Origin: Desulfobacterales bacterium | GTDB taxonomy: Bacteria > Desulfobacterota > Desulfobacteria > Desulfobacterales > UBA2174 | Direction of reading: 5' to 3' | DNA length: 64,000 nt | Assembly (NCBI GenBank): GCA_963668645.2 | Contig: CAXXWC010000018.1 | Span: 192,001-256,000, forward strand | In this document: in pieces, positions 733 through 36,602 of the stretch | Layout of the letters: every line of letters begins with the position of its first letter | Position numbering within the stretch: the stretch's first letter is position 1 | Program-made: the position numbers and the translations under genes | Notes under the pieces: generated by a model | What the model saw: only the letters and a program-made list of their open reading frames with translations | Databases searched by the model: none | What the model was told of the DNA's origin: nothing

Positions 733-746
733 AGACTTAAAAAATT

Positions 747-906
747 TGTTCAGGCGCTCATAATGGAGCTTAATAGGGAACCCCGTGAAAATCGGGGACG
801 GGCCCGCCGCTGTAATCGGGGACGAAAGCCGTAGCATGCCACTGACCTTGGGTCGGGAAGGCACGGCCGGTAGGACGATCCGTCAGTCAGAAGACCTGCC
901 TGGGCA
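747..906 (+). ncRNA. Cobalamin riboswitch
   Basis: AATAGGGAA, CCCGCCGCTGTAA, GCCACTG, GGGAAGG and B12-box AGTCAGAAGACCTGCC in canonical order; closing stem TGTTCAGG/CCTGGGCA. Confidence 0.95.
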
Positions 907-963
907 TATGGTCACCACCGCGCGGACGGCGTGGCGGCCACGATTTATCTGTGGATAAAAAAG

Positions 964-2560: not shown

Positions 2561-2634
2561 CCAGGGTAAAATCCAACCAAATTGTGTGGTTATGGAAGAT
2601 AACGTTACAGCTTTTTTGTCAAAGGAGGAAAAAC

Positions 2635-5600
2635 ATGCAGGCTGATCCACGCAACAGGTTTTTGAATTTTGCAGGCGCCGTACTGCTGGCCGTGCCTTTG
2701 GTCGCTATCGGCCTGGCCGCCGGACCGTCTATGGCCGACGCGGCCGGAATTACGGTCCAAGAGGGCGGAAGCATTCAGGCGGCCATTGACGCGGCCACGT
2801 CCGGGGACACGGTAACCGTGGAAAGCGGCACCTATGCCGGGGGCCTTACAATAGCTGAAAAATCACTGATCCTGCTCGGGGTGGACACGGGCGCCGGAAA
2901 GCCGGTAATCGACGGCGAGGGCGGCTCGGAACCGGTTGTTTCGCTGCAAAACAGCAGCGGCTGTACCGTCGAAGGGTTTGCGATCCAGAATTCGGGTTCT
3001 TTCGGCCTGAAGATACTGGGTTCGCCCAACGCGATCGTCCGGAGCAATGAACTCACCAATACCAACGGTATCGATGTAGAAGAAGGGTCGGACGCGGTCA
3101 CGATTGCACAAAACACCTGTGAGAGCAATGGTAACGCCCTTTATGTGTATAACTCACCCGGCCCCACCATCACCGGCAATACCTTTCAAAATGTCAGCAG
3201 CATTGGGTTGTACATAAGAAATTCCGGCGATGCCGCCATCAGAGACAATACCTTTGAAAACGTGGGCAACCGCGGAATTTACGCAAGAGATTCGATCAAT
3301 CCTGTCATCACCGGAAATACCTTAAACACCGATAGGGACGCAATTAACGTGAGGGGGTCGGACAATGCGGTCATCACCAAAAATACCTCTAAGAACGCAA
3401 TCAATGTACAGCAGTCCAACAACGCTGTTATTTCCGAAAATAGCTCTGCAGATTCATCGGGCTACGGAATATATGTAAGTAATTTAAGCGATCTGGTCCT
3501 TTCCCAGAATACCGTCAGCAGCGCCGGCAGCGATGGCATCTACCTGAACCAGATCACAACTGGCCTGGTGGAACACAACGCCGTCACCGGGGTAGGTGGT
3601 ACGGCGTGTCTCGTCGTCGAAAGTTGCAGCGATGCGATCGTCCGATACAATACGCTCAATGAGTCGGTCTACTATCTTGGTCTCGCCATTTGGGGGGGCA
3701 GCCAGGGGTGCAGCTTTTATGGCAATACCGTGGCCAACAACAACGGTGACCAGGGATGGAGCGGCGGTCTTTACCTGGAGGATGCCGATGCCGGGAACAC
3801 TTTTTACCTCAACGATTTTGAAAACGATGTCAATGTCGTCGAAACGGCAGGCGGCAGCGACTACCATTCGCCTGTTTTGTTGCGATACCAATACGGAGGC
3901 GAGACCCGTGATGGGTATTTGGGAAACCGCTGGTCCGACTACACCGGCACGGATGCAAACGGCGACGGCGTCGGGGATACCCCTTATGTGATAAGCGGCG
4001 ATATTCAGGACCCTTATCCCCTGGTAGGGACCCTGGACGCGTATACGGACATTATTGAAATAGCGCCCGATATCGCCATCAGCAACCTGACGCCGCCGTA
4101 TGTTGTCGGCGTCAGCCTGAACAACGTGATAACGGTCACCCTGCGCAACAACGGACTGGGCGCTGCCGGGACCTTCAACGTCTACCTTTACGCCGACGGC
4201 GAACTGGTCGACACGGTGACGGTGGAGGGCTTGGCCGCCGGCGAAGAGATTCAGGTGGCATTCACCTGGACGCCGCTGGAACGGATGACGGGCGTGGTTC
4301 TTACCGCTGAAACCGATCCGGACTACGCCGGACAGGGCATTAATCTCGATGACAATCAAACCGTGGCCGAGGCAGCGGTGGACGTTCTTGCCTCCGATTT
4401 GACCGTGACCGCGGTGGCCGTGGCGGCCGAGGTGGACAAAGACGAGGCCCGGACGGTGACTGTAACCGTTGCCAACACCGGATCCGCGCCGGCCATGGAC
4501 TTCACCGTGGGGCTCTACTGCGACATGTCGCCGGTGGTTCCCTGGGCCATGGCGCACCCGGCCGAAGCGGCCCTGCAGCCCGGCCTTTTCAACACCGTGG
4601 GAGCCGCCGGTCTGGTGGCCCGGGCGGTGGTGGACAATCTAGGGGCCGGAGAGTCAACGGATGTGGAGATTTCCTGGACCCCGGCCGACCCCGGGGTGCA
4701 TTTTGTCAGCGCCTGGGTGGATATGACGGCCGGTACCGTTGAGATGGACGATGCCAACAATATGCTGGCAACCCCGGTGCAAACCCTGGTTACGCCCTAC
4801 GCCGGCACGGTGACCACCCTGAATCAGGGGGATTCCCTGCAAACTGCGGTGGACGCCGCAGCCACGGGCGACACCATCCTGCTCAACCCGGGAACCTATC
4901 TGCTGGAGCCGGACGGCCAGGGCCTGCGGCTCAACATTCCGAAGGGGGGCTTGACTTTCAAGAGCGCAGGCGGGGCCGTGATCGACGGCAGCGTCAATGT
5001 GCTGCAGGACCCGGCCATTGCCTGGACGTCGGACGCGCCGGATACGGTCTTTGACGGTATTGCCTTTGTAAATTTCGCCATGGCCGCCGGCACGGCGGAC
5101 AAGTCCGGCCTGATGCTGAAAAACTGTACGTTCCAGGGCGGCCTGCGCGCCTTTTTCGGCGCCGAAGACGCCCTGGCCAATACCGACGGACTGACGGTCA
5201 GCGGCTGCCTGTTCGAGGCTGCCGACGTCAACGCCTTTGACGCAACGGCCGCGGACGTGACCATTGAAAATACGGTGTTCGACGGCAGTGCGTTTGCCGT
5301 GCGCAACCCGTCCGCTTTCAGCGGCTTTATTTTCCGCAACAACATGGTTGCCGGCGCTACGGTGCCCGAGGGCGCCAACAGCGCCTTTGTGCGCATCGAA
5401 GGGCCGGACGGCCTGGTGGCGGGCAACGTGTTCGAAGCCATGTCCCCCGGCGCGGGAAAGCTGGCCCTGACCCTGGTGGGCAGCAATGCGACGGTGCAAG
5501 GCAACCGCTTCGGCGCACTTTCCGGCGACGGCCATATCCTGCTGGAAAACGGTTCGAACAACCGGATTTATCTGAACGATTTTCCGGGCGAGGCGCCTCT

Positions 5601-7740
5601 TCTGTACGGCAATCCCGTGCTGCAGTCGCCGGAAGCCTATACCTATACCTATCAGGAACAAAGCTACACCTCGGTGCTCGGCAACCGCTACGCTTCTTAC
5701 GGGGGCGCTGATGCGGACGGCAACGGCGTGGGCGACACCTCCATGGATTTCACCGGGGCAAGCGACACGTTCCCGCTGATGGATTCCTTTGCCGCCTATA
5801 CGGATCTGGCCGCCGAAAAGGCCAATCTGACTGTGGGCGCGGTTACCGGGCCGGCAACGGCCCATGTGGGCATCTCCGCCGAGGTGACCGCCGAGGTGAG
5901 CAACACGGGCGGACCGGCCCATGATTTCACGGTGGCCCTCTACGCCGATGGAACCTTGGTGGAAACCCTGACCGTCGATACCCTCGGATTCGGGGAGACC
6001 GAAACCCTGACCTTCACCTGGACACCGGCGGCGGAAGCCCAGGCAGTGGTCCTTTCGGTGATCGCGGATGACGGCAATACGGTGGCCGAAAGCAACGAGG
6101 ATGACAATACCGTTGCGGCCGACACCGGTGTGGGCGTCACGCTGGCGGTGGACATGAGCATCGATCCGGCAACCGTTGAGACTGAAAACGGATCGGCCTT
6201 TGACGTGGCCATCCGCCTGGCGCCAAACGCTTACCGGGTGGCCGGGGTACAGTTCGACCTGACCTTCAATCCCGCCATCCTGGAGGTGACCGGCGTAACC
6301 GAAAGCACGCTTCTGAATCAGGACGGCGCCGGCACCTATTTTAACGGCGGTGCGGTGGACAACACGGCCGGCACCCTCACCGGGGTCGTGGGCGCCATCA
6401 CCACCCCGGGGGCGGACGTGGGCACGGCCGGCGTTTTCGCCGTTGTGAGTTTTCTGGCCAAGGGGGACGGCGTTTCGGTCCTGACCCTGTCCAATGCCAT
6501 TGTGGGTGACATGGATGCCCAGCCGCTGACCGTCGCCTTGACCGGAGGCTTTGTGCAAACCGCCTTTACCTATACGGCCACGGGCCAGGCGGCCTACGGC
6601 GGGGGGCAAACCGGCCCGCTGTATGTGGGCGTATACCTGGATGAAGACCTGAACCAGCCGCTGGTGCTGCCGGTTGCCGCCGACCTTGGAACGGACGTGA
6701 CCGTGTCCGACCTGGGGCCGGGGACCGGATACTACTTCGGCGGGTTTATCGACAGCAACGAAAACAACCTGCGGGATCCGGCCGAGGCTTTCGGCGCGGT
6801 GATGTTCGACATCGTGGACGACGACGTGACCGGGCTCGACGCTATTCTGTCGGACCCGGACGCGGACACCGACAACCTGCCCGACTACTGGCAGACCCTG
6901 TATGCCGGTTACAACTGCGGCCAGGGCATCGGGGGGGGCGACGACGACGCGGACCACGACGGCTACAGCAATGCCTGGGAATGGGCCAACGGCACCGATC
7001 CCACGGTGGTGGATGATCCGGACGGTCAGGGGTACGATCCCCAGACCGACCAGCGGGTGGTGCCGGCTGGCTGGTCCGTGACCCGCAGCCACGGCGACTA
7101 CCGGCCCGGTCAGTCCTTTACGGTAACCGTCACGGTTGCATACTCAGGGGACGTAACCGCCCTGGGCATCACCGAGGCCTTGCCCGAAGGCTGGACCTAC
7201 GTATCGGCTGAAAGCGCCGGCGGTATGAACGTGTTTGCGACCGGCGACGGCCGCCTCGAGTTCGCCTGGCTCAGCCTGCCGACCGACGGCCAGGGCCAGT
7301 CGGTCAATCCTTTTACCTTCAGTTACACCCTCCAGGTGCCGGAAACGGCCGGTGGCGACGCGGTTTTCGATGGGCAGGTGATCATGCGCATCGGCGGCGA
7401 GGCCGAAACCGCCTTTGACATGGCCCGGACCGTAGCCCGGCGCTTTGCCTTCCACACAGCGGACTTTTACCCGGCGGACTGGAGCATCAACCTGTCCGAG
7501 CTGCTGCGGGTCATTCAGCTTTACAACGTGGGCGCCTACCACTGTGATGGCCTGGGTGAAGACGGCTTCAACCCGGGTGCGGGTGAATACATGGACCCTG
7601 CGCCCCACAGCGCGGACTACAACCCGACAGACGGCGTTATCAGCGTATCCGAGCTGCTGCGGGTCGTGCAGATCTACAACGTGGGCGGGTACTGCCAGGA
7701 TGCCCTGGGTGAGGACGGGTACCGGCCAAGCGTCCAGTAG
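2635..7740 (+). CDS. Scaffold A, 1701 aa secreted protein: NosD/CASH beta-helix, 2 CARDB, second beta-helix, CARDB, cohesin, Ig, Ca-binding linker, LPxGW module, C-terminal SELLRVIQ dockerin-like domain
   Basis: RBS AAGGAGG at 2622-2628 before ATG 2635; signal peptide; YLGNRWSDYTGTDANGDGVGDTPY; CARDB motifs (DLTV..V.NTG..A..F.V.LY.DG); cohesin AGVQFDLTFNP..TYF..DNTAGTL at about 6154-6549; paired H(S/T)AD...SELLRV(I/V)Q repeats at the C-terminus. Confidence 0.85.
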   Translation: MQADPRNRFLNFAGAVLLAVPLVAIGLAAGPSMADAAGITVQEGGSIQAAIDAATSGDTVTVESGTYAGGLTIAEKSLILLGVDTGAGKPVIDGEGGSEPVVSLQNSSGCTVEGFAIQNSGSFGLKILGSPNAIVRSNELTNTNGIDVEEGSDAVTIAQNTCESNGNALYVYNSPGPTITGNTFQNVSSIGLYIRNSGDAAIRDNTFENVGNRGIYARDSINPVITGNTLNTDRDAINVRGSDNAVITKNTSKNAINVQQSNNAVISENSSADSSGYGIYVSNLSDLVLSQNTVSSAGSDGIYLNQITTGLVEHNAVTGVGGTACLVVESCSDAIVRYNTLNESVYYLGLAIWGGSQGCSFYGNTVANNNGDQGWSGGLYLEDADAGNTFYLNDFENDVNVVETAGGSDYHSPVLLRYQYGGETRDGYLGNRWSDYTGTDANGDGVGDTPYVISGDIQDPYPLVGTLDAYTDIIEIAPDIAISNLTPPYVVGVSLNNVITVTLRNNGLGAAGTFNVYLYADGELVDTVTVEGLAAGEEIQVAFTWTPLERMTGVVLTAETDPDYAGQGINLDDNQTVAEAAVDVLASDLTVTAVAVAAEVDKDEARTVTVTVANTGSAPAMDFTVGLYCDMSPVVPWAMAHPAEAALQPGLFNTVGAAGLVARAVVDNLGAGESTDVEISWTPADPGVHFVSAWVDMTAGTVEMDDANNMLATPVQTLVTPYAGTVTTLNQGDSLQTAVDAAATGDTILLNPGTYLLEPDGQGLRLNIPKGGLTFKSAGGAVIDGSVNVLQDPAIAWTSDAPDTVFDGIAFVNFAMAAGTADKSGLMLKNCTFQGGLRAFFGAEDALANTDGLTVSGCLFEAADVNAFDATAADVTIENTVFDGSAFAVRNPSAFSGFIFRNNMVAGATVPEGANSAFVRIEGPDGLVAGNVFEAMSPGAGKLALTLVGSNATVQGNRFGALSGDGHILLENGSNNRIYLNDFPGEAPLLYGNPVLQSPEAYTYTYQEQSYTSVLGNRYASYGGADADGNGVGDTSMDFTGASDTFPLMDSFAAYTDLAAEKANLTVGAVTGPATAHVGISAEVTAEVSNTGGPAHDFTVALYADGTLVETLTVDTLGFGETETLTFTWTPAAEAQAVVLSVIADDGNTVAESNEDDNTVAADTGVGVTLAVDMSIDPATVETENGSAFDVAIRLAPNAYRVAGVQFDLTFNPAILEVTGVTESTLLNQDGAGTYFNGGAVDNTAGTLTGVVGAITTPGADVGTAGVFAVVSFLAKGDGVSVLTLSNAIVGDMDAQPLTVALTGGFVQTAFTYTATGQAAYGGGQTGPLYVGVYLDEDLNQPLVLPVAADLGTDVTVSDLGPGTGYYFGGFIDSNENNLRDPAEAFGAVMFDIVDDDVTGLDAILSDPDADTDNLPDYWQTLYAGYNCGQGIGGGDDDADHDGYSNAWEWANGTDPTVVDDPDGQGYDPQTDQRVVPAGWSVTRSHGDYRPGQSFTVTVTVAYSGDVTALGITEALPEGWTYVSAESAGGMNVFATGDGRLEFAWLSLPTDGQGQSVNPFTFSYTLQVPETAGGDAVFDGQVIMRIGGEAETAFDMARTVARRFAFHTADFYPADWSINLSELLRVIQLYNVGAYHCDGLGEDGFNPGAGEYMDPAPHSADYNPTDGVISVSELLRVVQIYNVGGYCQDALGEDGYRPSVQ

Positions 7741-7753
7741 GAATGAAAAAAGA

Positions 7754-7788
7754 GCCGCGGGGGTGGGCTTTCGATCTGCTCCCGCGGC
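7754..7788 (+). promoter_or_regulatory. GC-rich intergenic stem-loop without U tail
   Basis: GCCGCGGG...CCCGCGGC; an equivalent follows scaffold C at 13124-13158. Confidence 0.6.
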
Positions 7789-7876
7789 GCCGAATATATT
7801 GCCTCATGCAGAGTGCCGAGAGCATCGCGCGGGAGGCATCATCTGACAGGATGAACCGGATTAAAAGGAGAAAGAA

Positions 7877-8290
7877 ATGAAACGAAAAGTGGCGATAAGA
7901 ACGCTGTCGGTTCTGGCCCTGGCGGCCGTGGTGCTGTGGTCCGCAACGGCCTTTGCGTTGACCGCCTCCCAGCAGGTTATCGGTGCGGGCGGCGAGATAA
8001 CGGTCATTACCACCATTGAATACAACGAGGCGCTCACGGCCCTGGGCGTAAGGGTGAAGCTGCCGGCTGGCTGGACCTTCAAGACCGTGGGCGGCAGCGA
8101 TGTGCCTGCAGTGGCGCCGGCTGAGGGTGCAAGCGGTGAAATCGACTTTGCCTGGATCGCGGCACCGGCTGGACCGGCGATGTTTGCATATACCCTGGCG
8201 GCGCCGCAAGGGGGTACGGCTCAGGATCTGGCTGCCGAGGTGGTCTACCGCGTGGGCGCCGGTGAGGAGCAGGTGGTTGTTGTCGAGTGA
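7877..8290 (+). CDS. Small secreted protein B: single LPxGW (cohesin-like) module
   Basis: RBS AAGGAG; signal peptide ending AFA; ALGVRVKLPAGWTF...IDFAWI...FAYTL shared with modules in A, C, F and G. Confidence 0.85.
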   Translation: MKRKVAIRTLSVLALAAVVLWSATAFALTASQQVIGAGGEITVITTIEYNEALTALGVRVKLPAGWTFKTVGGSDVPAVAPAEGASGEIDFAWIAAPAGPAMFAYTLAAPQGGTAQDLAAEVVYRVGAGEEQVVVVE

Positions 8291-8366
8291 TTTGATGGGT
8301 TCTGCTTCGCTCCACCGATACGATATCAAAAGAACGTTTCAGTCTTATTGCCATAGGAGGAAAACC

Positions 8367-11300
8367 ATGCAGACCGATCCACGCAACAGGTTTTTGAACC
8401 ATGCAGGCGCCGTGGTGCTGACCGTGTTGATGGTCATGGGCGGCCTGGCGGCCGGCCCGTCGGCGGCCTATGCCGCCGAACATGTGGTCCAGGACGGCGA
8501 AAGCATCGTCATGGCCATCCAAAATGCCGCCGGCGGCGACACGATTCTGGTGGAAAGTGGCACCTACAACGACGTCCTGTGGATAGACAAAACCCTGACC
8601 CTGCGCGGGGTGGACACCGGCGGCGGCAGACCGGTGATCGACGGCGGCGGTGTAAGCGACGCCATCACGCTGATGGCCGGGGGGATCGTCATCGAGGGGC
8701 TTATCATCCAAAACAATAACGCCAATTACGGTATTCAGGACTACCGCGGCAGCGCCACCATCCACGACAATGTGATCCGCAACTGCAATATCGCCCTTCG
8801 GTTGAAGAGTTCCGCGATTGTCACGCAAAACACGATCCAGGACATGAGTAGCTACTGGATATACCTCTCCAGTTGCTCCAGTATCCTGATTCAGGGAAAT
8901 ACCATTTCGAACTGCAAGAACGGGGAATTCATCAGCACTTCGCGCGATGTTATCGAACACAACACGTTTTCAAACATGGATTATGCCATCCGTTTCAGTA
9001 CGGCCAGCCAAAATATCATCCGGTACAACACCTTCTCCGATTTCACCGGAAATGGAATCTATTTCAACAATATGCCCAACACTGGGTATTGGAACGAGGT
9101 CTACGGCAACACGTTCAGCAACATCGGCGGGAAGGCCATGGCAATCAACGGCAACGCCAAATACCAGCGGATCTTCTTCAACGACTTCGAGAACGTCGGG
9201 GGCGTGGTCGGCACGACCGGAGGGATCGACAACAGGTATCACTCCCTCGGCGTGTGGCAGTACGACTACAACGGCCAGACCTATCAGAGCTATCTTGGCA
9301 ACCGCTACCCGGGCTACGCGGGATCGGATGCGGACGGCGACGGCATCGGCGACACGCCCTATGCGGTCACCGCCGAGCTCAACGACGAATATCCCCTGGC
9401 GGCGTCCCTGGATGCCTACACCAACGTGGTGCCGGTGCTGCCGGACCTGACTGTGACCGATATCACGCTGCCGGCTGTCATCGGCGTTGACCTGTCGTCA
9501 TCCGTGGCGGTGACCGTGGCCAACACCGGCCTGGCCGATGCGGAAAGCTTCCAGGTGAAGCTGTACGCCGACGGCGAGGTCGTGGAGACCCTGACCGTGG
9601 ACGGCCTGGCCATGGGCGCCGAAATCGTGGTGATCTTTACCTGGACCCCCGAAGAGATCGCCCAGGGCGTGGAACTGGAGGTCAAAGTCGATTCGGGCAA
9701 CAGCCTGGATGAAATTTCCGAAGACGACAACACGGTGCCGGCGGGTGCGCCGGTGGATGTACAGTCTTCCGATTTGTCAGTCACCGCGGTCACCCTGGCG
9801 GACAACGTCAACCGGGATGAAAGCCAGACCGTCACCGTGACGGTGGCCAACACCGGCGCGGCCGATGCGGGGAGTTTTATCGTGGGGCTTTACTGCGACA
9901 TGTCGCCGGCGGTGACCTGGGCCGCGGCCCATGCGGATGAAGCCGCCCTGCATCCCGGCCTTTTCAACACCATCGGCAAAGCCGGGCTGGTGGCGGCCGC
10001 TACGGTGGATTCACTGGCGGCCGGTGCAACGGTGAACCTGGATATCCCCTGGACGCCGGAAAAGGCCGGCGTACGGACCCTCAGCGCCTGGGCCGACATG
10101 ACCTGTACGGTGGATGAACAGGACAATGCCAACAATCTGCTGGATACGGCTGCCCTGCGGGTGGTGCAGCCTTACACCGGGACGGTGGCCACCCTGGATC
10201 CCGGTGACTCGCTCCAGGCGGCAATGGATGCCGCGGCCGCGGGTGACACCATCGTTTTGAATCCCGGGACCTACGAACTGGAAGAAACCGGCGGCACTCG
10301 TACCCTGGCCATTACCGGGCCGGACCTGACCGTCAAGGCTGCCGGCGCGGTCGTTATCGACGGGGTGGACCCGCTGCAGTATCCGGCCCTGGTGTGGGGG
10401 CCTGAAGACGCATCCCGGACCCTTTTCGACGGCATCACGTTTGTCAAGGTGGCCATGGCATCCGGCGAAGCAGGCCGGTCCGGACTGACCTTTAAAAACT
10501 GTACCTTCGGAGGCGGCCAAAAAAACCTGTTCGGCGACGGGGAAGCGCTGGCCGGGGTCGGCAATGTGACGGTTGACAGCTGCCTGTGGCAGTCCGGCAA
10601 CGACCAGCCGTTTTCCGCAACCGCCGAAGGTTTTACCATCCAAAACAGCGTTTTTGACGGCTGCACCCTGACCATCCGCAATCCTTCGGCCTTTGGCGGC
10701 TTTGTTTTCCAAAACAACATGGCCGTGGGGGTGACGGTACCTGAAAGCGACTATAACGCCTTTCTGCGTATCGAAGGGCCAAACAGCCTGGTGGCGGGCA
10801 ATGTATTCGAAGCCATGACGCCGGGAGAGGGTAATCTGGTCGTGAACCTGGTGGCCGACGGCGGCACGGTGCGGGACAACCGCTTCGGCGTCCTGGCCGG
10901 CAGCGGGTGGACCTTCATGGAAGCCGGAACCAGCAACCGCATTTTCCGCAACGACTTTCTGGGCGATACGCCCATGTTTTTCGGCAATCCCTCCCTGCAA
11001 ACCCCGGTGACCACCGCCTGGGTCTACCAGGAGCATACCTGTACCGGATTGATGGGAAACCATTACGCGAATTATTCAGGCGGCGACAGCGACGGCGACG
11101 GTATCCGCGACAGCGCCGCCAACATTGACGGGGTCATGGACGACTATCCGCTGGCAGCTTCGATTTCCGCTTACGGGGTCGTGCCGGCCAATCTCACGGT
11201 GAACGCGCTGACCTTGCCGGGCGGTATTTACGAGGGACTGCCGGCGGAGATCACTGCCGTTTTGGCCAACACCGGCGCCAGCGATGCCGGTCCCTTTACG

Positions 11301-13109
11301 GCTGCGCTCCATGTGAACGATCAAATCGTGGATTCTCTTACGGTGGGCGGCCTCGCGGCCGGTGCGGATATCGGGGTGACCTTTACCTGGACCGCGCCGG
11401 GAGCTGCCGAGGGGGTGGTCCTGACGGTTGTGGTGGACGTGGACGACGCCGTTATGGAAGCAGACGAAACCGACAACACCGGCGCCGCGGAAGCGCCGGT
11501 GGACGTGGTGCTGCCGGTGCGGCTCTATACGGAACCGATGCCGGCCAACGCTCCCGTCGGGGCCTCCTTTGACGTGGCGGTGCGGGTGGATCCGGGCGCA
11601 TTCGGCATTGCCGGCGTGCAGTTCGACCTGTCTTTCGATCCGGCGGTCCTGGAAATTACCGGGGTGGCCCAAGGCGCCTTGCTGAACCAGGACGGCGCGG
11701 GCACCTATTTTGCCGGCGGTACGATCGACAACACGGCCGGGACCCTCAGCGGCGTGGCCGGCGCCATTACCACGCCGGGTGCCGATGTGAACACTTCCGG
11801 CGTGTTCGCCGTGATCAGCTTTACGGCCAAGGCATATGGTGTTTCGAACCTGGCCTTTTCCAACGCCATCGTGGGGGACATTAACGCCGACCCGGTGAGC
11901 CTGATGGTGGAAAACGGGTCCGCGGCAGTGGTGGTCACCTATTCGGCCACCGGCCAGGCGGCTTATGCCGTCGGCCAGACCGGAGATCTGATCGTAGGTG
12001 TCTATAGCGACGATGACCTGACCCAGCCGTTGGCCGTACCGGTGATTGCCAGCCTGGGGGCTGACGCGACCGTGACCGGCCTGGTGGCAGGGACCGGATA
12101 CCGTTTCGGGGCCTTTATCGACAGCAACGGCAATGGCGCAAGGGATGGGGCCGAAGCCTGGGGCGCGACCGTCTTCGATATCGTGGACAGCGACGCAACC
12201 GGCCTGAAGGTGCTCCTGATGGATCCGGATCTTGATGCCGACAACCTCCCCGATTATTGGCAGGCCCTTTACGCCGGGTATAACGGCGGCGCCGGCATCG
12301 GGGATGGAGACGGCGACGCGGACCACGACGGTTACAGCAATTTCTGGGAGCTGATCAACGGCACCGACCCTACGGTGCAGGACGATCCGGACGGGGAGGG
12401 CTACGATTCGGCCACCGATCAGCGGGTGGCGCCGGCCGGCTGGAACGTGTCCCGCAGCCACGGGGATTACCGGCCCGGGCAGTCTTTTGAGGTGACTCTG
12501 ACTGTACAGTACAGCGGCGACGTGACGGCCATGGCAATCATCGAAACCCTGCCCGAGGGCTGGACCTACGTATCGGCGAACAGTGCCGGCAACATGTTTG
12601 CCCAGGAAGGACCCGACAATACGCTGGAGTTCGTTTTGATCAGCTTGCCTGTGGACGTGCAGGGCCAGGCGGTCAATCCTTTCACTTTCAGCTACGTTGT
12701 GCAGGTACCGGAGACGGCCGACGGTGCGGCGGTTTTCGACGGCGACATCCTGGCGCGCATCGATGACGGCATCGAAAAGACCTTTACGATCCCGCAAACC
12801 ACGGCAAACCGCTACGCTTTTCACAGTGCGGATTACCGGCCGGCGGACTGGACGATCAATCTCTCGGAATTGTTGCGGGTGATCCAGCTTTACAACATGG
12901 GGGCCTATCACTGCGATCCTTTGGGTGAAGAGGGCTTCAACCCAGGTGTGGGTGATTACACCGATCCGGCGCCTCACAGTGCGGACTACAACCCGGCCGA
13001 CGGCAGCATCGGCCTTTCCGAGCTGCTGCGGGTGATACAGATCTACAATGTAGGCGGATACCGATTGGATCCTGCCGGCGAGGACGGGTACCAGCCGGGT
13101 TTGGAGTAA
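8367..13109 (+). CDS. Scaffold C, 1580 aa paralog of scaffold A with the same domain order
   Basis: RBS AGGAGG before ATG 8367; MQTDPRNRFLN start like A; collinear with A after a divergent first beta-helix; cohesin at about 11520-11920; SELLRVIQ repeats at about 12820-13106. Confidence 0.85.
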   Translation: MQTDPRNRFLNHAGAVVLTVLMVMGGLAAGPSAAYAAEHVVQDGESIVMAIQNAAGGDTILVESGTYNDVLWIDKTLTLRGVDTGGGRPVIDGGGVSDAITLMAGGIVIEGLIIQNNNANYGIQDYRGSATIHDNVIRNCNIALRLKSSAIVTQNTIQDMSSYWIYLSSCSSILIQGNTISNCKNGEFISTSRDVIEHNTFSNMDYAIRFSTASQNIIRYNTFSDFTGNGIYFNNMPNTGYWNEVYGNTFSNIGGKAMAINGNAKYQRIFFNDFENVGGVVGTTGGIDNRYHSLGVWQYDYNGQTYQSYLGNRYPGYAGSDADGDGIGDTPYAVTAELNDEYPLAASLDAYTNVVPVLPDLTVTDITLPAVIGVDLSSSVAVTVANTGLADAESFQVKLYADGEVVETLTVDGLAMGAEIVVIFTWTPEEIAQGVELEVKVDSGNSLDEISEDDNTVPAGAPVDVQSSDLSVTAVTLADNVNRDESQTVTVTVANTGAADAGSFIVGLYCDMSPAVTWAAAHADEAALHPGLFNTIGKAGLVAAATVDSLAAGATVNLDIPWTPEKAGVRTLSAWADMTCTVDEQDNANNLLDTAALRVVQPYTGTVATLDPGDSLQAAMDAAAAGDTIVLNPGTYELEETGGTRTLAITGPDLTVKAAGAVVIDGVDPLQYPALVWGPEDASRTLFDGITFVKVAMASGEAGRSGLTFKNCTFGGGQKNLFGDGEALAGVGNVTVDSCLWQSGNDQPFSATAEGFTIQNSVFDGCTLTIRNPSAFGGFVFQNNMAVGVTVPESDYNAFLRIEGPNSLVAGNVFEAMTPGEGNLVVNLVADGGTVRDNRFGVLAGSGWTFMEAGTSNRIFRNDFLGDTPMFFGNPSLQTPVTTAWVYQEHTCTGLMGNHYANYSGGDSDGDGIRDSAANIDGVMDDYPLAASISAYGVVPANLTVNALTLPGGIYEGLPAEITAVLANTGASDAGPFTAALHVNDQIVDSLTVGGLAAGADIGVTFTWTAPGAAEGVVLTVVVDVDDAVMEADETDNTGAAEAPVDVVLPVRLYTEPMPANAPVGASFDVAVRVDPGAFGIAGVQFDLSFDPAVLEITGVAQGALLNQDGAGTYFAGGTIDNTAGTLSGVAGAITTPGADVNTSGVFAVISFTAKAYGVSNLAFSNAIVGDINADPVSLMVENGSAAVVVTYSATGQAAYAVGQTGDLIVGVYSDDDLTQPLAVPVIASLGADATVTGLVAGTGYRFGAFIDSNGNGARDGAEAWGATVFDIVDSDATGLKVLLMDPDLDADNLPDYWQALYAGYNGGAGIGDGDGDADHDGYSNFWELINGTDPTVQDDPDGEGYDSATDQRVAPAGWNVSRSHGDYRPGQSFEVTLTVQYSGDVTAMAIIETLPEGWTYVSANSAGNMFAQEGPDNTLEFVLISLPVDVQGQAVNPFTFSYVVQVPETADGAAVFDGDILARIDDGIEKTFTIPQTTANRYAFHSADYRPADWTINLSELLRVIQLYNMGAYHCDPLGEEGFNPGVGDYTDPAPHSADYNPADGSIGLSELLRVIQIYNVGGYRLDPAGEDGYQPGLE

Positions 13110-13221: not shown

Positions 13222-13635
13222 ATGAAGCGAAAATGGACGACTTCAATGATGTCGGTTCTGGCCCTGGCGGCCGTGGTGCTGTGGTCCGCAACGGCCTTTG
13301 CGTTGACCGCCTCCCAGCAGGTTATCGGTGCGGGCGGCGAGATAACGGTCATTACCACCATTGAATACAACGAGGCGCTCACGGCCCTGGGCGTAAGGGT
13401 GAAGCTGCCGGCTGGCTGGACCTTCAAGACCGTGGGCGGCAGCGATGTGCCTGCAGTGGCGCCGGCTGAGGGTGCGAGCGGTGAAATCGATTTTGCCTGG
13501 ATCGCGGCGCCGGCTGGACCGGCGATGTTTGCATATACCCTGGCGGCGCCGCAAGGGGGTACGGCCCGGGATCTGGCTGCCGAGGTGGTCTACCGCGTGG
13601 GCGCCGGTGAGGAGCAGGTGGTTGTCGTCGAGTGA
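13222..13635 (+). CDS. Small secreted protein D: single LPxGW module, near-identical to B
   Basis: RBS AAGGAGG; mature sequence differs from B by one residue (Q/R). Confidence 0.85.
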   Translation: MKRKWTTSMMSVLALAAVVLWSATAFALTASQQVIGAGGEITVITTIEYNEALTALGVRVKLPAGWTFKTVGGSDVPAVAPAEGASGEIDFAWIAAPAGPAMFAYTLAAPQGGTARDLAAEVVYRVGAGEEQVVVVE

Positions 13636-13730: not shown

Positions 13731-15140
13731 ATGAGGAATAACGAGATGATGAAATGCCTGATTCAGAAAAAAAACGCATATCTCTGGATGGCCGTCATCG
13801 CGCTCTTCTGCTTGGTCCTGCCCATCACAGCCAGCGCCGGGCTGGATGACGGGACGAGCTGGGAGCAGTTCGGCGGGGACGTTACCCACGTGGGATTCAC
13901 CCAGTCCACTGTTCCCCACGTCAAGCAGCTTGCCTGGTTCAGTCAGATTATCTATGCCAGCGGCTCGTCGTCCCTGGCGGTGGCGGACGGAAAAATATTC
14001 GTTTATTCCGCCCCCAGCGGGATGGATGCCAGCGGTCCCACAAGCGTTGTCTGCCTGGACGCCGCAGGCGGCACGAAGCTATGGGAAACGGCAGTGGAAG
14101 AGGCCGAGTGGGGCTCATGGTCGTCACCGGCCTATCACGACGGCAAGGTGTTTATCTCTTCGGGCAAGGAAACCTGGTGCATGAACGCTGAAGACGGGGC
14201 CAAGATCTGGGCGTTTCGCAACCCTTCGGAAGAGGCGTCCTGTAACGGGGGGCCGACCGTGGCCGACGGCAAGGTCTTTTGCAGCGACTGGCAGGGGGGG
14301 CACTATTACTGCCTGAACGAGTCGGACGGCAGCCTGGTGTGGACCTTTGACGTGCCCGGCTACGCTCAGGGAACGCCGGCCTATCGTGACGGCAAGGTCT
14401 ACCTGACAAGCTGGGTCTATGTTGGCGGACATATCTATTCCGTAAACGTCGCCGACAAGAGCGTGAACTGGCATCAGACAAATCTCCTTGATACTTGCGG
14501 CTCGGCAACCCTCTACAATGACACAGTTTTCGTGACCACGTATAATTTTGCCGGGGACGGAGAACTCATCGCCCTGAACGAAGCGGACGGCAGCTATAAA
14601 TGGACGCGTGTCGTTCAGCGCACGGACAATACGCCGGCAGTGGCCTATGGCAAAGTCTATGTCGGGGGCGGGTGTGCCGGCTATTCCGCTTCAATGGTAC
14701 ACTGCTTTGACGCCGAAACCGGAGACATGGCCTGGGAAGTGAGCAACTACGGCAACTGGACCGGCAACGTGGCCGTAGCCGACGGACTGGTAATTGTGGG
14801 CCGGGGCGGCGGCAGTTACTTCGGCTATGCCGGCACCTATGCCCTGGATGCGGAAACCGGTGCGGAAATCTGGGGCCATAATAGGGGGGGATCTTCCCCG
14901 GTGGTGGCCAACGGATTCATCTACACCATCGGCGACGATGGCCGCGTTTATGCCTATGGATCGTCTTTCCCGGCCTGGGATATCAATACCGACGGAGCCA
15001 CCAACGTGCTGGACCTGATCCGCGTGGGCCAGCATTTCGGGGAAACCGGGGCAGCAGGCTGGATTCCGGAAGATGTCAACATGGACGGCAGGATCAACGT
15101 TCTGGATATGATTCTTATCGGACAGCATTGGAGCTTTTAA
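13731..15140 (+). CDS. Protein E: secreted PQQ-like (BamB-type) beta-propeller with C-terminal dockerin
   Basis: Signal peptide; WEQFGGD..H.G start; repeated SP....GKV / C..A..G...W blades; WDINTDGATNVLDLIRVGQHF...EDVNMDGRINVLDMILIGQHW. Start may be 13746 or 13749. Confidence 0.85.
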   Translation: MRNNEMMKCLIQKKNAYLWMAVIALFCLVLPITASAGLDDGTSWEQFGGDVTHVGFTQSTVPHVKQLAWFSQIIYASGSSSLAVADGKIFVYSAPSGMDASGPTSVVCLDAAGGTKLWETAVEEAEWGSWSSPAYHDGKVFISSGKETWCMNAEDGAKIWAFRNPSEEASCNGGPTVADGKVFCSDWQGGHYYCLNESDGSLVWTFDVPGYAQGTPAYRDGKVYLTSWVYVGGHIYSVNVADKSVNWHQTNLLDTCGSATLYNDTVFVTTYNFAGDGELIALNEADGSYKWTRVVQRTDNTPAVAYGKVYVGGGCAGYSASMVHCFDAETGDMAWEVSNYGNWTGNVAVADGLVIVGRGGGSYFGYAGTYALDAETGAEIWGHNRGGSSPVVANGFIYTIGDDGRVYAYGSSFPAWDINTDGATNVLDLIRVGQHFGETGAAGWIPEDVNMDGRINVLDMILIGQHWSF

Positions 15141-15766
15141 CCCATAAATTCGTGCGGTGGATTATTTTTATCGCAGTTTTTCTCAGCCTGGCAGGTGTTT
15201 TTACACCTGTTCAGGCCGAATTGCGGACGGCTTTGACAACGGTGGCGGCCCACCATTCGAGCGCCGGCTACATCGCCGGTGAAACGCTGGCCGTTTCGGT
15301 ATCCATTGAGTATCCGGAGTCCTTAACGGCCCTGGGGTATCAGATGGCCCTGCCGGCCGGATGGTCCTTTGTAGCTGCGGCCGGTTCAAGGGTCCCGCCC
15401 ATCAAGCCTGATGTCGGGCATACAGGCGTCCTCGATTTTGCCTGGATCCTGCCGCCCGCCGGTCCGTCGGTATTTACGATCACCCTGGCCGTGCCGGAAG
15501 GGTGTGCCGGCATACAGACCCTTCAAGGGACCGTTCTGTTCCATGTCGGCAACGACAATCAACAAAAGACCGCGGCCTTGCCGGATCCATTGAGGGTCTA
15601 TCCGTTGGGCGCAGGCGATCTCGACGGCAGCGGCGTCGTAGACCTGGCCGATGCCGTTGCGGGGCTGAGGGGGCTTTGCGGCCTGCCGGCACAATTGGGG
15701 GAACTGGAAGGCGGACGGGTCAGAATGGCAGATGTGCTGCTCGTGCTGCGGCGGATCTCGGAATGA
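15128..15766 (+). CDS. Adaptor F: LPxGW module plus host-type dockerin
   Basis: Signal peptide; ALGYQMALPAGWSF...LDFAWI; C-terminal GDLDGSGVVDLADAVAGLR...MADVLLVLR. TTG start uncertain. Confidence 0.75.
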   Translation: MELLTHKFVRWIIFIAVFLSLAGVFTPVQAELRTALTTVAAHHSSAGYIAGETLAVSVSIEYPESLTALGYQMALPAGWSFVAAAGSRVPPIKPDVGHTGVLDFAWILPPAGPSVFTITLAVPEGCAGIQTLQGTVLFHVGNDNQQKTAALPDPLRVYPLGAGDLDGSGVVDLADAVAGLRGLCGLPAQLGELEGGRVRMADVLLVLRRISE

Positions 15767-15882: not shown

Positions 15883-18066
15883 TTGAAGTCCCTTAAAAAC
15901 AACACAAATGGGGGGGAAAGCCCGGGACACACCGCGGCAACCCTTGTTTTGCTGCTTTTAGCGATTTTTGCTGCACCGGCGGCGGCAGCCGTGGACCTGA
16001 CGGCTCACCATGCAGCCGCTCCTTACATACCGGGAAGTCCGTTGGTCGTAACCGTGACGCTGGACTACGATACGGGCCTGAGTGCCCTGGGCATGCGCGT
16101 GGTGCTGCCCACGGACTGGACTTACCTTTACTGCTGCGGGACCGGCCGGCCCGACAGCGTCCGGGTCGTCGCCCCCGGCGAGCTGGAATTGGTGTGGATC
16201 AACGCACCGGAACCCGGCGCCGGGGAGGATCCTGCACTGTCTTTTACCTATCTGCTGGGCGTTCCGGCATCCGAAGCCGAAACCCGAACGCTCCAGGCTG
16301 AAATTTTTTACCGCGTCGGCAGTGGGGCCGAGAATACAGCGGCCGTTTTGCCGGACCCCTTGGACGTGTCCGCTGATCCCGCACCGGAAAGTTTCGTGGA
16401 GCCGACGCACCAGGCAGCGCGTTTTTTGGCCGGCAGCCTTGCAGCGGTGGAGACGTCCGTACGGTATTCGGGCGAGTTGAGTGCATTGGCCCTGGTTATG
16501 GAACTGCCTGAAGGCTGGTCGTATGCCTCCGCCGACGGAGAGGTGCCGGACATTGAACCAACACCCGGTACAGAAGGAACATTAGAATTTACATGGATTA
16601 CGCCGCCGCCAAGTCCGGCCGTCTTTACCTGCCGGCTGCAGACACCGGTGGATGCCGGCAATGCCGCCGAGATCCGCTCCGAAATTGTATATCGGCGCCT
16701 GGCCGAAGAGCTTCGCAAGGAGGTGCAGCCGGACCCGCTCATGCTCCGTTGGGTGACTCCGGAAGTTTTGCAGGCAGCGCCGTCCGCCATCGTGGACAGT
16801 CCGGAAGCAAAGGAACTGGTGGTTACCGGCCGCTATTTTGTTCCGGGTGAAAACCACATCGTGCGTTTCGTCAATTCGCAAAACGTTTTCGATCTGAAAA
16901 GCCTGCCGTCGGATGAAAGCAGTCTGACGGTCGCTATCCCGCCCGGTGTTCCGCCGGGGACCTACCGGCTGCGGGTCATCAATGCATGCGGCATTTCGGC
17001 TCTCAGCGAAGCCACCGTGGAGGTGACCGCGCCGGCGACGCCGATACCCAACGTAACCGACGTCCGGCCCTCTACCGGCGCCGTTCAAAAATCGACCCGG
17101 ATCACCCTATACGGGGCGCATTTCAACGACGTATCGTCCGTTTGCCTCTGCGAAGACGGCCTTCAGATAGCGCTATTGGACGTTACTTTGGTGGATGAAT
17201 CCACTGTTCAGGCGACAGTGCCGTCGACTTGTCCCGAGGGCATCTATGATGTGCAGGTGACGGCCGGCGGGCTAAAAAACAACATCAGCACGGTAAAGTT
17301 TTTCGTATTTGTACCGAGGGCCATTAACTCCGAGACTTCCGATGAATTGGTGGCCGATGGGTTGGTGGACCTTGACGAAAATTTAAACGGTACCCTGCCG
17401 GTCAACCTGACCCTGAAAACCTGGTCCGACGGATACCGGATGGTGATCGACGACGATCCCCTGGAAATCGAGGCGGTCATCGAGGCCGGTACCCGCATGA
17501 CCCGCAGTGACGGGAGCGCCTATGCGGGCGCCCTGATGATGCCGGTGCAGGTCAAGGTAACCGAGGATCTCGCAGAGGATTTCAGTTGGGATGACGTGGC
17601 GCTATTCCAGATGGGCAGCGCCGAAGAATCCATCATTTTGTCCGAACCCATGGTAATCGCCTTGACCGTCAGCCGCAGCGCCGCGAAGGGCGCCCCCCTG
17701 ATCTACTACCTTGATGCAGACGGCGGGACCACACCGGCCGGCGTGGCCGGTGTAAAGGACGGCCGGGAATATGAAGCCGGCGGAACCGTACTGGAAGTTA
17801 GGGCGGATGAACCCGAGGCCGGCAAGAACACATACCGTATCGGCCTGCTGCTAGACCATATGTCCACCTTCGTCGTGGGAAACAAGGGCGCCGCTTCGGG
17901 GCAGCCCCCGTCTGGCGGCGGCGGAAAGTGCTTTATCGATGTGGCCGACGGGGAAATAGGTAATTTTAACGGCGGCTGTCAAGTGATTTGGGGCGTGATG
18001 GTCCTTCTGGCGATGGGACTGTGCCTGGTGAAACGGATGGAGGATCAAAAGCCGCAGGATAGGTGA
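15883..18066 (+). CDS. Anchor G: two LPxGW modules, two IPT/TIG-like domains, C-terminal GGGGKCFID plus TM sorting signal
   Basis: RBS GGAGG before TTG; LPTDWTY and LPEGWSY modules; VTGRYF and LYGAHF IPT motifs; GGGGKCFID at 17914-17940, then a hydrophobic helix and charged tail. Confidence 0.8.
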   Translation: MKSLKNNTNGGESPGHTAATLVLLLLAIFAAPAAAAVDLTAHHAAAPYIPGSPLVVTVTLDYDTGLSALGMRVVLPTDWTYLYCCGTGRPDSVRVVAPGELELVWINAPEPGAGEDPALSFTYLLGVPASEAETRTLQAEIFYRVGSGAENTAAVLPDPLDVSADPAPESFVEPTHQAARFLAGSLAAVETSVRYSGELSALALVMELPEGWSYASADGEVPDIEPTPGTEGTLEFTWITPPPSPAVFTCRLQTPVDAGNAAEIRSEIVYRRLAEELRKEVQPDPLMLRWVTPEVLQAAPSAIVDSPEAKELVVTGRYFVPGENHIVRFVNSQNVFDLKSLPSDESSLTVAIPPGVPPGTYRLRVINACGISALSEATVEVTAPATPIPNVTDVRPSTGAVQKSTRITLYGAHFNDVSSVCLCEDGLQIALLDVTLVDESTVQATVPSTCPEGIYDVQVTAGGLKNNISTVKFFVFVPRAINSETSDELVADGLVDLDENLNGTLPVNLTLKTWSDGYRMVIDDDPLEIEAVIEAGTRMTRSDGSAYAGALMMPVQVKVTEDLAEDFSWDDVALFQMGSAEESIILSEPMVIALTVSRSAAKGAPLIYYLDADGGTTPAGVAGVKDGREYEAGGTVLEVRADEPEAGKNTYRIGLLLDHMSTFVVGNKGAASGQPPSGGGGKCFIDVADGEIGNFNGGCQVIWGVMVLLAMGLCLVKRMEDQKPQDR

Positions 18067-18108: not shown

Positions 18109-19182
18109 ATGATCCGACATGTTTTTGGCGTTCTACGCCGGAGGTGGATTTTTTGGGGCATACTCTTTTTGCCATGCCTGGCATCCGCGGCCGTTGCCGA
18201 GGAAACGCGTGTTTTTTTTACAGGCGGCCCCCATTTTGTCGAAGAAGGTGGCAACTGTACCGTTGCGCTGCAGGCGGTGCCGGCCGTTCCCGTCGCCGGT
18301 ATTCAGGTGGACGTGGTTTTCGATCCGACCCATGTTGAAATCACCGGAGTTCAGGAAGGGGATTTTTTCAAAGGGCAGGGCTACAGCACCTATTTCGTGC
18401 CGGGCACCATCGACAACGATCAGGGGCGGCTGTCCCAGATGGTGGGGGTGATCACGACCCCCGGCGGTGAAACCGGGCAGGCGGGCGTGATCGCCGAGAT
18501 CGCCTTTATGGGCAAAACCGCCGGAACGGCTGCCCTGACAATCGCAGAGCTCGTCATCGGCAACAAAGACGGGGCGGCCGTGGCGGCTTCGGCGGAGGCG
18601 GGAGAAATTCGGATAACGGCTGCGGACGCCGATGACGACGGTATCCCGGACGTGTGGGAAGAGACCCATGGACTGAACAGCGCTTTTGGAGACGACGCCC
18701 TTGAGGACCGTAACGCCGACGGCGAAAGCAACATCAACGAATATAAACGCGAGTTTCTGTCCTGGATCAGCGGCGCTGATCCAGAGTTGGAACGGGCGAA
18801 ATGGGATGTTGGCGGGGACGGGCGGTTGACGCTCGCCGAGGCAGTATGCGCTCTGCAGGCGGCGGCCGGATTGCGGCAGGCAGTGCTTTCCGACGCTGAT
18901 TCGGAAAGCAGCGCGGCCCTGGATGCCGAGGACGCCGATAATGACGGCATGCCGGACGCCTGGGAGACGGACCGTGGTTTGAATCCGCAAAACGCCCAGG
19001 ACGCCCTTGCGGACAGGGATGCGGACGGCGTCAGCAACATCCAGGAGTGCCTGCGGGAAGCCTGGCTGGCCAAGGAAACGACGGGGGCACTTGAGGCCCG
19101 AACGCCATGGGACGTCGGCGGTGATGGTATTATGGGGTTGGCCGAAGCGGTTCAGGCCCTGCAGGTGGCGGTGGCGAACTAG
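18109..19182 (+). CDS. Adaptor H: cohesin (same type as in A and C) plus two [Ca-binding repeat + host-type dockerin half] units
   Basis: VAGIQVDVVFDP..VQEGDF..TYFVPGTIDNDQGRL..ITTPG; DADDDGIPDVWE and DADNDGMPDAWE; WDVGGDG...LAEAV.ALQ twice. Confidence 0.8.
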   Translation: MIRHVFGVLRRRWIFWGILFLPCLASAAVAEETRVFFTGGPHFVEEGGNCTVALQAVPAVPVAGIQVDVVFDPTHVEITGVQEGDFFKGQGYSTYFVPGTIDNDQGRLSQMVGVITTPGGETGQAGVIAEIAFMGKTAGTAALTIAELVIGNKDGAAVAASAEAGEIRITAADADDDGIPDVWEETHGLNSAFGDDALEDRNADGESNINEYKREFLSWISGADPELERAKWDVGGDGRLTLAEAVCALQAAAGLRQAVLSDADSESSAALDAEDADNDGMPDAWETDRGLNPQNAQDALADRDADGVSNIQECLREAWLAKETTGALEARTPWDVGGDGIMGLAEAVQALQVAVAN

Positions 19183-22268: not shown

Positions 22269-22399
22269 CCAAAGGACGGAGTCCGGAGTACGGAGGGCAG
22301 AGGATAAGATGGCGGCGCCGGCCGGCGCAGAGCGCATCTTTTTTTTTTCATACATTCATGACCCAATATCCCTGTAAAACGCAGAATTCAATTGCGGCG

Positions 22400-36089: not shown

Positions 36090-36602
36090 ATGAAAATGGC
36101 GAAACATAGACAAATGGCAAAGGCCTTGGTTCTATCATTGGGCATGCTGATTATGTCAGGCCTGGCCTCATCCTACGGATGGGCGGAAACGCAGTACGTG
36201 GAATTGAAACCTCTGCAGGACGTTGGCGGTGTTCAAGATTTTGCGGTGGTCTATCATATCGATGGCGCCACGGCACTGACCACCGGTTTGGGGATCAGGA
36301 TCCACTACAACTCTAAAGCCGTTTCAAAAGTGATTTTTTCGGGTGTTTTTGAAAAGGGGCTTGTGGTCAAGGACGCAAAACCCAAACCGGATAACGCGGA
36401 CTATGACAACAACCCTGAAACGGACCGATTCGTTGTGCTGGCATGGATGGATTTAGACGGTCGATGGCCTTATGAGGCCCAACTTCCGTTGACGCTTGCA
36501 ACGCTTTCCATAACCTCAAACAAAAACGGAGGAACACTGCGACTGGCGGTCAGCGCCTCCAGCGTGCCTCCGGGGCTGTCCTTCAAAGGAGGGCGATTAT
36601 AG
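36090..36602 (+). CDS. Small secreted protein Q: single GLRIHY module
   Basis: Signal peptide; TTGLGIRIHYNS..DYDNNPETDRFVVLAWMDLDGRWP..LPLTL. Confidence 0.8.
   Translation: MKMAKHRQMAKALVLSLGMLIMSGLASSYGWAETQYVELKPLQDVGGVQDFAVVYHIDGATALTTGLGIRIHYNSKAVSKVIFSGVFEKGLVVKDAKPKPDNADYDNNPETDRFVVLAWMDLDGRWPYEAQLPLTLATLSITSNKNGGTLRLAVSASSVPPGLSFKGGRL

Follow-up and report, generated by a model that had tools for sequence, protein, structure and literature searches.

Two unannotated candidate receptor/tag module families in a Desulfobacterales gene cluster and the possibility of head-to-tail adaptor assembly

Results

Layout of the Y/dY gene cluster

We analyzed a stretch of 64,000 nucleotides from a Desulfobacterales bacterium (assembly GCA_963668645.2, contig CAXXWC010000018.1, positions 192,001 to 256,000), hereafter the window, which encodes two large, paralogous and probably secreted proteins, A (2635..7740) and C (8367..13109), that end in a module we call Y followed by a dockerin-like tag, dY. 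Coordinates refer to the + strand unless stated otherwise. Protein A has a signal-like N-terminus, a NosD-like beta-helix, CARDB repeats, a Pfam cohesin that is the likely cargo site (6148..6567; PF00963, E 1.1e-7), a TSP3-like acidic repeat, module Y (7069..7446, about 125 residues) and dY (7450..7737), the latter consisting of two repeats of about 47 residues, each with an EF-hand-like loop, a 13-residue helix and a hairpin. One codon separates Y from dY in A, where the two together span 223 residues, and C ends in the same arrangement (cohesin 11517-11939, E 1.5e-9; Y 12438-12815; dY 12819-13106). Both proteins possess a single Pfam cohesin, 5' of Y, together with CARDB repeats and NosD-like beta-helices, and they share 63% identity in Y and 76% in dY. 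A start for A at 1546 was rejected, since 1546-2634 has no Pfam match and a ribosome binding site precedes 2635. The placement of the module directly before the tag had been noticed in a first-pass annotation of this DNA; it recurs in 65 non-identical Y domains and is therefore not a matter of chance.

Each adaptor is followed by a small gene encoding a signal-like N-terminus and Y only (B, 7877..8290, after A), D (13222..13635, after C) being a near-identical copy of B. The A+B and C+D pairs form a duplication within 2600-13720, long stretches of which are 66-76% identical at the DNA level. Only about one residue distinguishes mature B from mature D, and this near-identity, in spite of the much lower identity of the two pairs as a whole, suggests a recent conversion. 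Downstream lie E (13731..15140), a PQQ-type beta-propeller with a Pfam dockerin (PF13360, PF00404) and likely cargo of the A and C cohesins; F (15128..15766), combining Y (15233-15604) with a dockerin-like repeat of a type also found on other proteins of the genome; and the predicted anchor G (15883..18066), with two Y modules in tandem (15991-16374 and 16393-16755), IPT/TIG domains, a Gly-rich CFI motif and a hydrophobic C-terminal stretch. We take this Gly-rich, CFI and hydrophobic-tail motif, which we read from the sequence itself, to be a sorting or anchor signal; an NCBIfam search gave no match for it. The cluster continues with H (18109..19182), bearing a Pfam cohesin that resembles those of A and C along with acidic and dockerin-like repeats, a second and a third PQQ-type propeller, each with a Pfam dockerin (19334-20809 and 20865-22268), and a TonB-dependent receptor (22265..24415; PF00593, PF07715).

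A second system of the same layout

Further downstream, protein P (33999..36008) carries a Pfam cohesin, a module Z (35211-35657) and a tag of two repeats, dZ (35655-36005). It is followed by Q (36090..36602), with a signal-like N-terminus and Z only, and by the anchor R (36686..41539), which has one N-terminal Z (36770-37201), an Ig-like stalk, a Gly-rich CFI motif and a hydrophobic tail. The idea that P bears the same module pair as A and C did not hold: BLAST and phmmer found no significant similarity between Z and Y or between dZ and dY, and profile-profile comparison gave probabilities of 6.5% (Y/Z) and 1.1% (dY/dZ), on which grounds we rejected Y/dY for P. The window thus holds two parallel systems of one layout, namely a tagged adaptor, a stand-alone module and an anchored module. 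Accordingly, the earlier view that anchors have the module without the tag is correct within each system (two Y and no tag in G, one Z and no tag in R), but not for a single module Y shared by all. The secreted, stand-alone B and D, and also Q and F, are carriers of Y or Z that the annotation had not included.

A search of the whole source assembly (6.35 Mb, 22 contigs, 99% complete) for Y, dY, Z and dZ located 7 Y, 2 dY, 3 Z and 1 dZ, all inside the window; the tags of A and C are the sole dY of this genome, and that of P its only dZ. In Archaeoglobus fulgidus (PDB 2xdh), a gene for a cohesin plus a dockerin reportedly lies beside a cohesin-only gene, in a manner reminiscent of A+B or P+Q, with canonical type I-like modules. 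A small protein with one dockerin-like loop is encoded at 33429-33836, just ahead of P, and similar genes precede the adaptor cluster in loci L038 and L173.

Y and Z are predicted beta-sandwiches of the cohesin type

The AF2 model of the Y-dY fragment (pLDDT 93.2, pTM 0.73) predicts Y to be a nine-stranded jelly-roll sandwich like that of cohesins. Its best structural match (VIA) was the Clostridium perfringens cohesin 2w1n (Z score 13.5, rmsd 2.4, 121 residues aligned), tied with CnaA pilin domains and CLIPPER, and the top Foldseek match was a CLIPPER domain. At the sequence level, none of 60 Y domains matched Pfam Cohesin (PF00963) at E<=0.1, and 16 of the 60 gave weak matches to DUF11; nor did Pfam Cohesin match over the Y of A or C. 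The Lys-Asp-Asn isopeptide triad is absent from Y: among 486 domains, in columns mapped by eye from DUF11-like repeats, the first-strand position is occupied by Lys, Arg and His at frequencies of 0.00, 0.43 and 0.20, respectively, the catalytic position by Glu and Asp at 0.53 and 0.06, and Asn never exceeds 0.14 in the last strands. The weak DUF11 matches, together with the replacement of the isopeptide Lys by Arg/His and of the Asp by Glu, suggest that Y descends from CLIPPER but makes no cross-link. We describe Y as a predicted cohesin/CLIPPER-type sandwich.

The case of Z is plainer. In the Z-dZ model (pLDDT 96.8, pTM 0.85), the top 17 fold matches (VIA) of Z were all cohesins (Z score 14.2, rmsd 2.4, 132 aligned, compared to 11.0 for the best non-cohesin), and Z is accordingly predicted to be a divergent cohesin, more clearly so than Y. 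Pfam Cohesin had no match over Z in Q or R, and Z-dZ has no sequence relative in the PDB. In a set of 120 dZ proteins found with the tag alone, the two dZ repeats, with one loop each, occur as an adjacent pair in 120/120. For this reason we rejected the notion that the two repeats of P are independent dockerins; of the two options first raised for them, a single dockerin-like unit is favored and branching through P is unlikely.

Y homologues were examined as the best 150 of 1,841 representatives at E<=0.001, a total that includes DUF11 repeats such as P0123. Of these 150 proteins, 46 also have dY, and many others have 2-10 copies of Y, mostly in tandem at the N-terminus, with a hydrophobic C-terminal tail and no tag.

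The tag dY has a dockerin-like distribution

No dY sequence matched Pfam Dockerin_1 (PF00404; 0/20 at E<=1) or any other Pfam family, and dY has no sequence relative in the PDB. Both repeats nonetheless contain invariant Asp, Glu, Arg and Gln in 20/20 sequences, with the same helix residues kept in each. The loop measures 12 residues in 193 and 13 residues in 367 of 572 repeats, and in the 12-residue loops Asn/Asp is found at position 3 in 0.87 and at position 5 in 0.98 of cases (the first and last loop residues being fixed by the search pattern). The model places the tag helices at residues 142-154 and 193-205 of the fragment, with beta-hairpins in place of the dockerin linker helix. By sequence pattern and model, dY is thus a duplicated calcium-binding-type loop plus helix (F-hand), and may bind calcium. 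Fold searches with the two-domain models (Y-dY and Z-dZ) returned no dockerin chain, the match lists being filled by sandwich domains. In the ESM Atlas, dY matched Hydrogenedentota clusters at 0.95-0.97 and, as a weak lead, a cluster with 11% Dockerin_1 at 0.84.

At least 613 stretches with dY were confirmed in genome collections. Among the best 120 of 210 homologues (C itself included), 101 have the tag at the C-terminus, and it occurs on otherwise unrelated proteins: peptidases, a collagenase, a sulfatase, leucine-rich repeat (LRR) proteins and VCBS proteins. This spread over secreted-type proteins is a dockerin-like distribution. Some proteins (P0150, P0155, P0241, P0248, P0268 and locus L158) have Y followed by a single tag repeat, at times as Y-half-Y-half; such half tags would need pairing. 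The description of single-repeat dockerins of Ruminococcus flavefaciens as functional (PMC12270676) bears on these proteins.

Y/dY and Z/dZ as probable receptor/tag pairs

If Y is the receptor of dY, genomes with the tag should also have the module. In a sample of 251 genomes of the order, the 9 genomes with dY were all among the 12 with Y; the three genomes with Y alone comprise one that is 83% complete and two with single weak matches. Similarly, dZ was present in 10 and Z in 11, with Z in all 10 dZ genomes. In a set of 28 dY genomes, drawn from the best 78 dY loci and partly overlapping with the order sample, 27 had Y, the remaining one (G388) yielding no Y even with a deeper profile. The background in 350 other genomes of the phylum was 0 for Y and 1 for dY. 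It should be noted that the sampled genomes are kin and partly overlapping, and hence not independent, which is why no test statistic is given.

Gene order points in the same direction. A gene for a tagged protein, one for a stand-alone receptor and one for an anchored receptor occur in conserved order in L038, L154, L173, G514, G589, G420 and G002, and the cassettes are seen to swap: P0016 is a P-type cohesin protein with a Y-dY end, the anchor of L173 has a C-terminal part that by eye resembles R but bears three Y, and G420 encodes a mixed Z-dY protein ahead of Y anchors. Genome G012 combines a protein with five Y and 30 dY matches, an instance of a cellulosome-like multi-tier organization, in which repeated anchored receptors face many tagged secreted proteins; the window has a two-Y anchor and two tagged adaptors.

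Two computational approaches gave no information on the interface. Prediction of a complex between the second Y of G, the dY of A and two calcium ions scored 0.19 and 0.17 against a mark of 0.32; controls were not folded, and this result was not used as evidence. Receptor-tag covariation by mutual information with average product correction (MI-APC; 67 Y-dY and 134 Z-dZ rows) gave no inter-domain pair above the intra-domain range and was uninformative; the top pair within Y was Arg12-Glu47, the positions that match the Lys and Asp of CLIPPER (z 4.6, weak). Taken together, co-occurrence, architecture and fold lend good, if indirect, support to the original proposal that the tag is the partner of the module, for Y/dY and, separately, for Z/dZ. 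We consider it probable, with some confidence, that Y and dY form a receptor/tag pair that binds in a calcium-dependent manner.

Two loci extend the repertoire. In L308 (G420:C106:1-17500), a mixed Z-dY protein, a stand-alone Y, a protein with two Y and an anchored protein with nine Y lie in one cluster, so that both systems are used. At L173:5858-10453, a P-type cohesin protein ends in a third type of module followed by GWNL-type repeats. Two neighbors share this module, which points to a possible third receptor/tag system.

Do the adaptors assemble head to tail?

The first-pass annotation proposed that a scaffold docked on the anchor presents a new module to the next scaffold. In this scheme, A and C would likely act as adaptors in a surface complex with two tiers, like that of a cellulosome. 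Their dY likely docks on the cohesin-like Y of G, the predicted membrane anchor, while the Y that they carry themselves would then likely accept a dY from the next A or C, to give short head-to-tail chains. The Pfam cohesins of A, C and H would load the dockerin-bearing propellers, soluble Y carriers (B, D and F) might cap or chaperone the assembly, and P, Q and R would work alike with Z/dZ. If the Y of A or C is active, the tags open to it are those of A and C alone, in the same molecule or in another, as these are the sole dY of the genome. A chain thus follows if the tag-adjacent module is active and unable to close on its own tag, since no dY exists in the genome outside A and C, and no dZ outside P.

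The tag-adjacent modules retain most of the conserved residues of their families. The frequencies in tag-adjacent vs. tandem Y are 0.62 vs. 0.63 for Gly44, 0.89 vs. 0.84 for Trp80 and 0.82 vs. 0.75 for Arg113, and those in tag-adjacent vs. other Z are 0.96 vs. 0.94 for Gly37 and 0.91 vs. 0.88 for His43. Provided that Y binds dY, we lean slightly towards activity of the tag-adjacent Y in trans. The linker between module and tag is short and fixed, with 4-11 residues in 43 of 49 Y-dY and 0-1 residues in 134 of 140 Z-dZ proteins. In cohesins, the binding face lies on the sheet opposite the last strand, and with linkers of this length closure of the module on its own tag through that face is unlikely. 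In five genomes (G000, G002, G009, G463 and G553), the only dZ found is on a Z-dZ protein, and in three of them (G000, G009 and G553) this protein adjoins a one-Z anchor. Counting by hand, a tag-adjacent receptor goes with an anchor of 1-2 receptors in 5 cases (the two systems of the window, G009, G553 and, by coordinates only, G463). Overall, we rate the formation of head-to-tail chains by A and C as a live hypothesis whose probability falls just short of even.

A number of observations weigh against chaining. Anchors with 4-5 tandem Y have tagged neighbors without Y in G012, G514, G464 and G589 (hand count), a pattern suggesting that valency usually comes from tandem receptors, and one-receptor anchors likewise occur with tagged proteins that lack a receptor of their own in G566, G449 and G387. 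A receptor in the same chain as the tag is the minority arrangement: 14 of 120 dY proteins among the best homologues, 5 of 100 dY open reading frames (ORFs) in loci of genomes assigned to Desulfobacterales, Hydrogenedentota and other groups and 36 of 120 dZ proteins, the corresponding figure being 12 of 80 dY ORFs in metagenome loci retrieved with a Y-dY query. G already has two Y and the anchors of relatives carry 4-10 in tandem. Polymerization in place of tandem receptors, as the annotation had it, is therefore not the rule of the family. The Y modules of A and C are also off-consensus at Pro64 and Tyr112, and that of C at Gly44 and Trp80 as well, and the fold of Y is tied between cohesins and the non-binding CnaA/CLIPPER stalk domains (13.1 and 12.3, close to the 13.5 of 2w1n). 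Among 53 tag-adjacent cases, in a set enriched for multi-Y proteins, Y-dY-Y is more frequent than Y-dY (30 vs. 19). Lastly, G412 and G413 have 5 dY in all, each of them part of a Y-dY-Y or dY-Y protein, and neither assembly has a strong Y outside these proteins, a pattern that fits a self-contained intramolecular clamp as well as a network.

The latter two observations also favor the strongest alternative, which we regard as unlikely: Y does receive dY, but the tag-adjacent copy either folds back onto the tag beside it or occupies one site of a symmetric pair, the second being taken by the Y of the anchor or by soluble B/D, as in Y-dY-Y proteins, so that A and C are single, non-chaining adaptors. 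The Z-dZ-dZ-Z proteins provide a parallel, the successions A then B and C then D can be read as Y-dY-Y spread over two genes, and the Y-dY-Y genomes G412 and G413 have no anchor. The retention of the same helix residues in both tag repeats is consistent with two equivalent sites, and the pTM values of 0.73 and 0.85 permit a defined contact between the two domains of the models. Against this, the linkers of both systems look too short to reach the binding face, and canonical dockerins bind one cohesin at a time. The stand-alone receptors B and D, one behind each adaptor, could be chain caps or fillers of a second site, but a stand-alone Y is also found 3' of tagged proteins without Y in L038, G514 and G589, and a stand-alone Z is missing in G009 and G553; this type of gene is therefore not tied to chaining.

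It is less probable still, in our estimation, that the tag-adjacent module serves as a structural spacer, comparable to the X module of type II dockerins, or a binder of a different ligand such as another dockerin class, which would yield a finite hierarchy instead of a chain. The short, fixed linker and the degenerate positions of the Y of C are compatible with such a role, for which X60-dockerin offers a precedent (PMC5590126). True cross-type adaptors do occur, as in the mixed Z-dY protein of G420 and in the combination of Y with another dockerin-like repeat in F, L009 and L041. When Y classes were compared by nearest-neighbor identity, a tag-adjacent Y was closest to another such Y in 53 of 65 cases; however, the mean identity between classes is flat (0.29-0.33), and thus there is no clearly separate subfamily. 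Moreover, most tags do without the module, and the same module is found in tag-free tandem arrays on anchors.

That Y is a non-binding, CLIPPER/DUF11-derived stalk, with dY anchored through another receptor or surface and co-occurring with Y through travel in one gene cluster, is the least probable reading, for although it draws on the DUF11 and Foldseek matches, the lack of Pfam Cohesin matches and the dY genome without Y, it sits poorly with the distal, N-terminal position of Y on anchors, its existence as a stand-alone protein, its presence in 9/9 and 27/28 dY genomes, often on contigs other than those with most of the tags, and its exchange with the clearly cohesin-like Z.

Surroundings and probable role of the cluster

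The cluster would likely serve in corrinoid (vitamin B12) capture next to the TonB receptor. Propellers held by the cohesins of A, C and H, with A and C hung on G, would make up a corrinoid-scavenging surface array. A cobalamin riboswitch (735..917; Rfam RF00174, 125 bits) lies 1.7 kb 5' of the start of A and is followed by a terminator-like hairpin in the sequence at about 960-1005. Whether this riboswitch controls A is made uncertain by the DNA between them: the segment 1100-2630, which is in frame with A from 1546, resembles transposase remnants by eye and may have uncoupled the riboswitch from the cluster. Two further cobalamin riboswitches lie in tandem at 63402-63593 and 63689-63882, with their target beyond the window. 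Within the cluster, dockerins are borne by PQQ-type propellers and not by the glycoside hydrolases of a cellulosome in the strict sense, only part of the dockerin-like proteins elsewhere in the genome having been annotated.

About a dozen more ORFs with the F-type dockerin-like repeat are present on contigs C1, C3, C10, C18, C20 and C21 of G000, and C10:132618-145553 contains a frame of 4,300 residues with the same CFI anchor. These probably represent the cargo and the anchor for additional cohesins, for example that of P and the one at 24776-25381. A Type II secretion protein C and an unannotated neighbor are encoded at 25305-27207, 3' of the cluster, and Type II secretion is a possible export route. 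On the - strand, a protein with dockerin-like repeats is apparently split over two overlapping ORFs (42697-45437) by a frameshift near 43400, and the gene is flanked by GNAT and ParE genes of likely toxin-antitoxin pairs (41640-42143 and 45780-46274, -). A class III aminotransferase is also in two ORFs (60804-62362, -).

Discussion

The solid result of this analysis is the existence of two unannotated receptor/tag families, with the polymer as a hypothesis that they raise. The literature searched, whose coverage excludes most subscription journals, contains no description of the Y/dY or Z/dZ modules.

The closest relatives in architecture are the ScaC-type adaptor scaffoldins of R. flavefaciens (PMC4081043, PMC12484212), with one cohesin and one dockerin, which likewise join receptor and tag in one chain between the anchor and dockerin-bearing cargo, in two tiers of specificity. 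Whereas those adaptors switch specificity, A and C combine their cargo cohesin with another receptor, which belongs to the anchor's own family; in addition, Y and dY have no Pfam cohesin or dockerin match, the host is likely Gram-negative and the cargo does not consist of carbohydrate-active enzymes (CAZymes). Self-association was proposed earlier for cSca1/cSca2 of the mucinolysome (PMC12997984), whose scaffoldin cohesins are predicted to bind the dockerin of their own scaffoldin. These are canonical multi-cohesin scaffoldins and the evidence there is a prediction, while here we have a single receptor, a near-zero linker and unannotated families.

Outside cellulosomes, cohesin-dockerin pairs, including two-module adaptors, display peptidases or binding proteins for metal uptake on the surface in the planctosome (PMC6461901), in Cloacimonadota (PMC8542988) and in ANME archaea (PMC9012536). 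Those systems were found with standard domain libraries, whereas Y/dY and Z/dZ escape the Pfam cohesin and dockerin models. The type II X module-dockerin (XDoc) dyad (PMC5590126) also has a beta-sandwich immediately 5' of the dockerin; in our case, in contrast, the module belongs to the family of the tandem modules on anchors and is absent from most tagged proteins. Finally, CLIPPER/DUF11 domains (PF01345; 10.1101/2025.04.25.650565) share the CnaA-like fold of Y (VIA Z score 12.3, rmsd 2.6, 114 aligned), but Y has Arg/His at the isopeptide Lys, no conserved Asn, and a distal or stand-alone position instead of one in the middle of a stalk.

We tentatively suggest, as a possibility that is some way from being established, that a CLIPPER/DUF11-derived receptor and an unannotated EF-hand-like tag constitute a cohesin-dockerin-like code, the third of its kind, that is widespread among diderms such as Hydrogenedentota and Desulfobacterota. 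Certain lineages might use it to build self-extending head-to-tail filaments that display cargo (here, B12-scavenging propellers), and others tandem scaffoldins or anchor-free Y-dY-Y networks. The two small candidate pairs, if orthogonal, would be useful for designer scaffolds, and a natural self-extending receptor-tag polymer, if true, would represent a new mode of assembly. If the modules bind as we infer, tagged cargo can be read from genomes, with dY on up to about 30 proteins in each, and cellulosome-like surface complexes would be far more common in uncultured diderm anaerobes than annotation shows.

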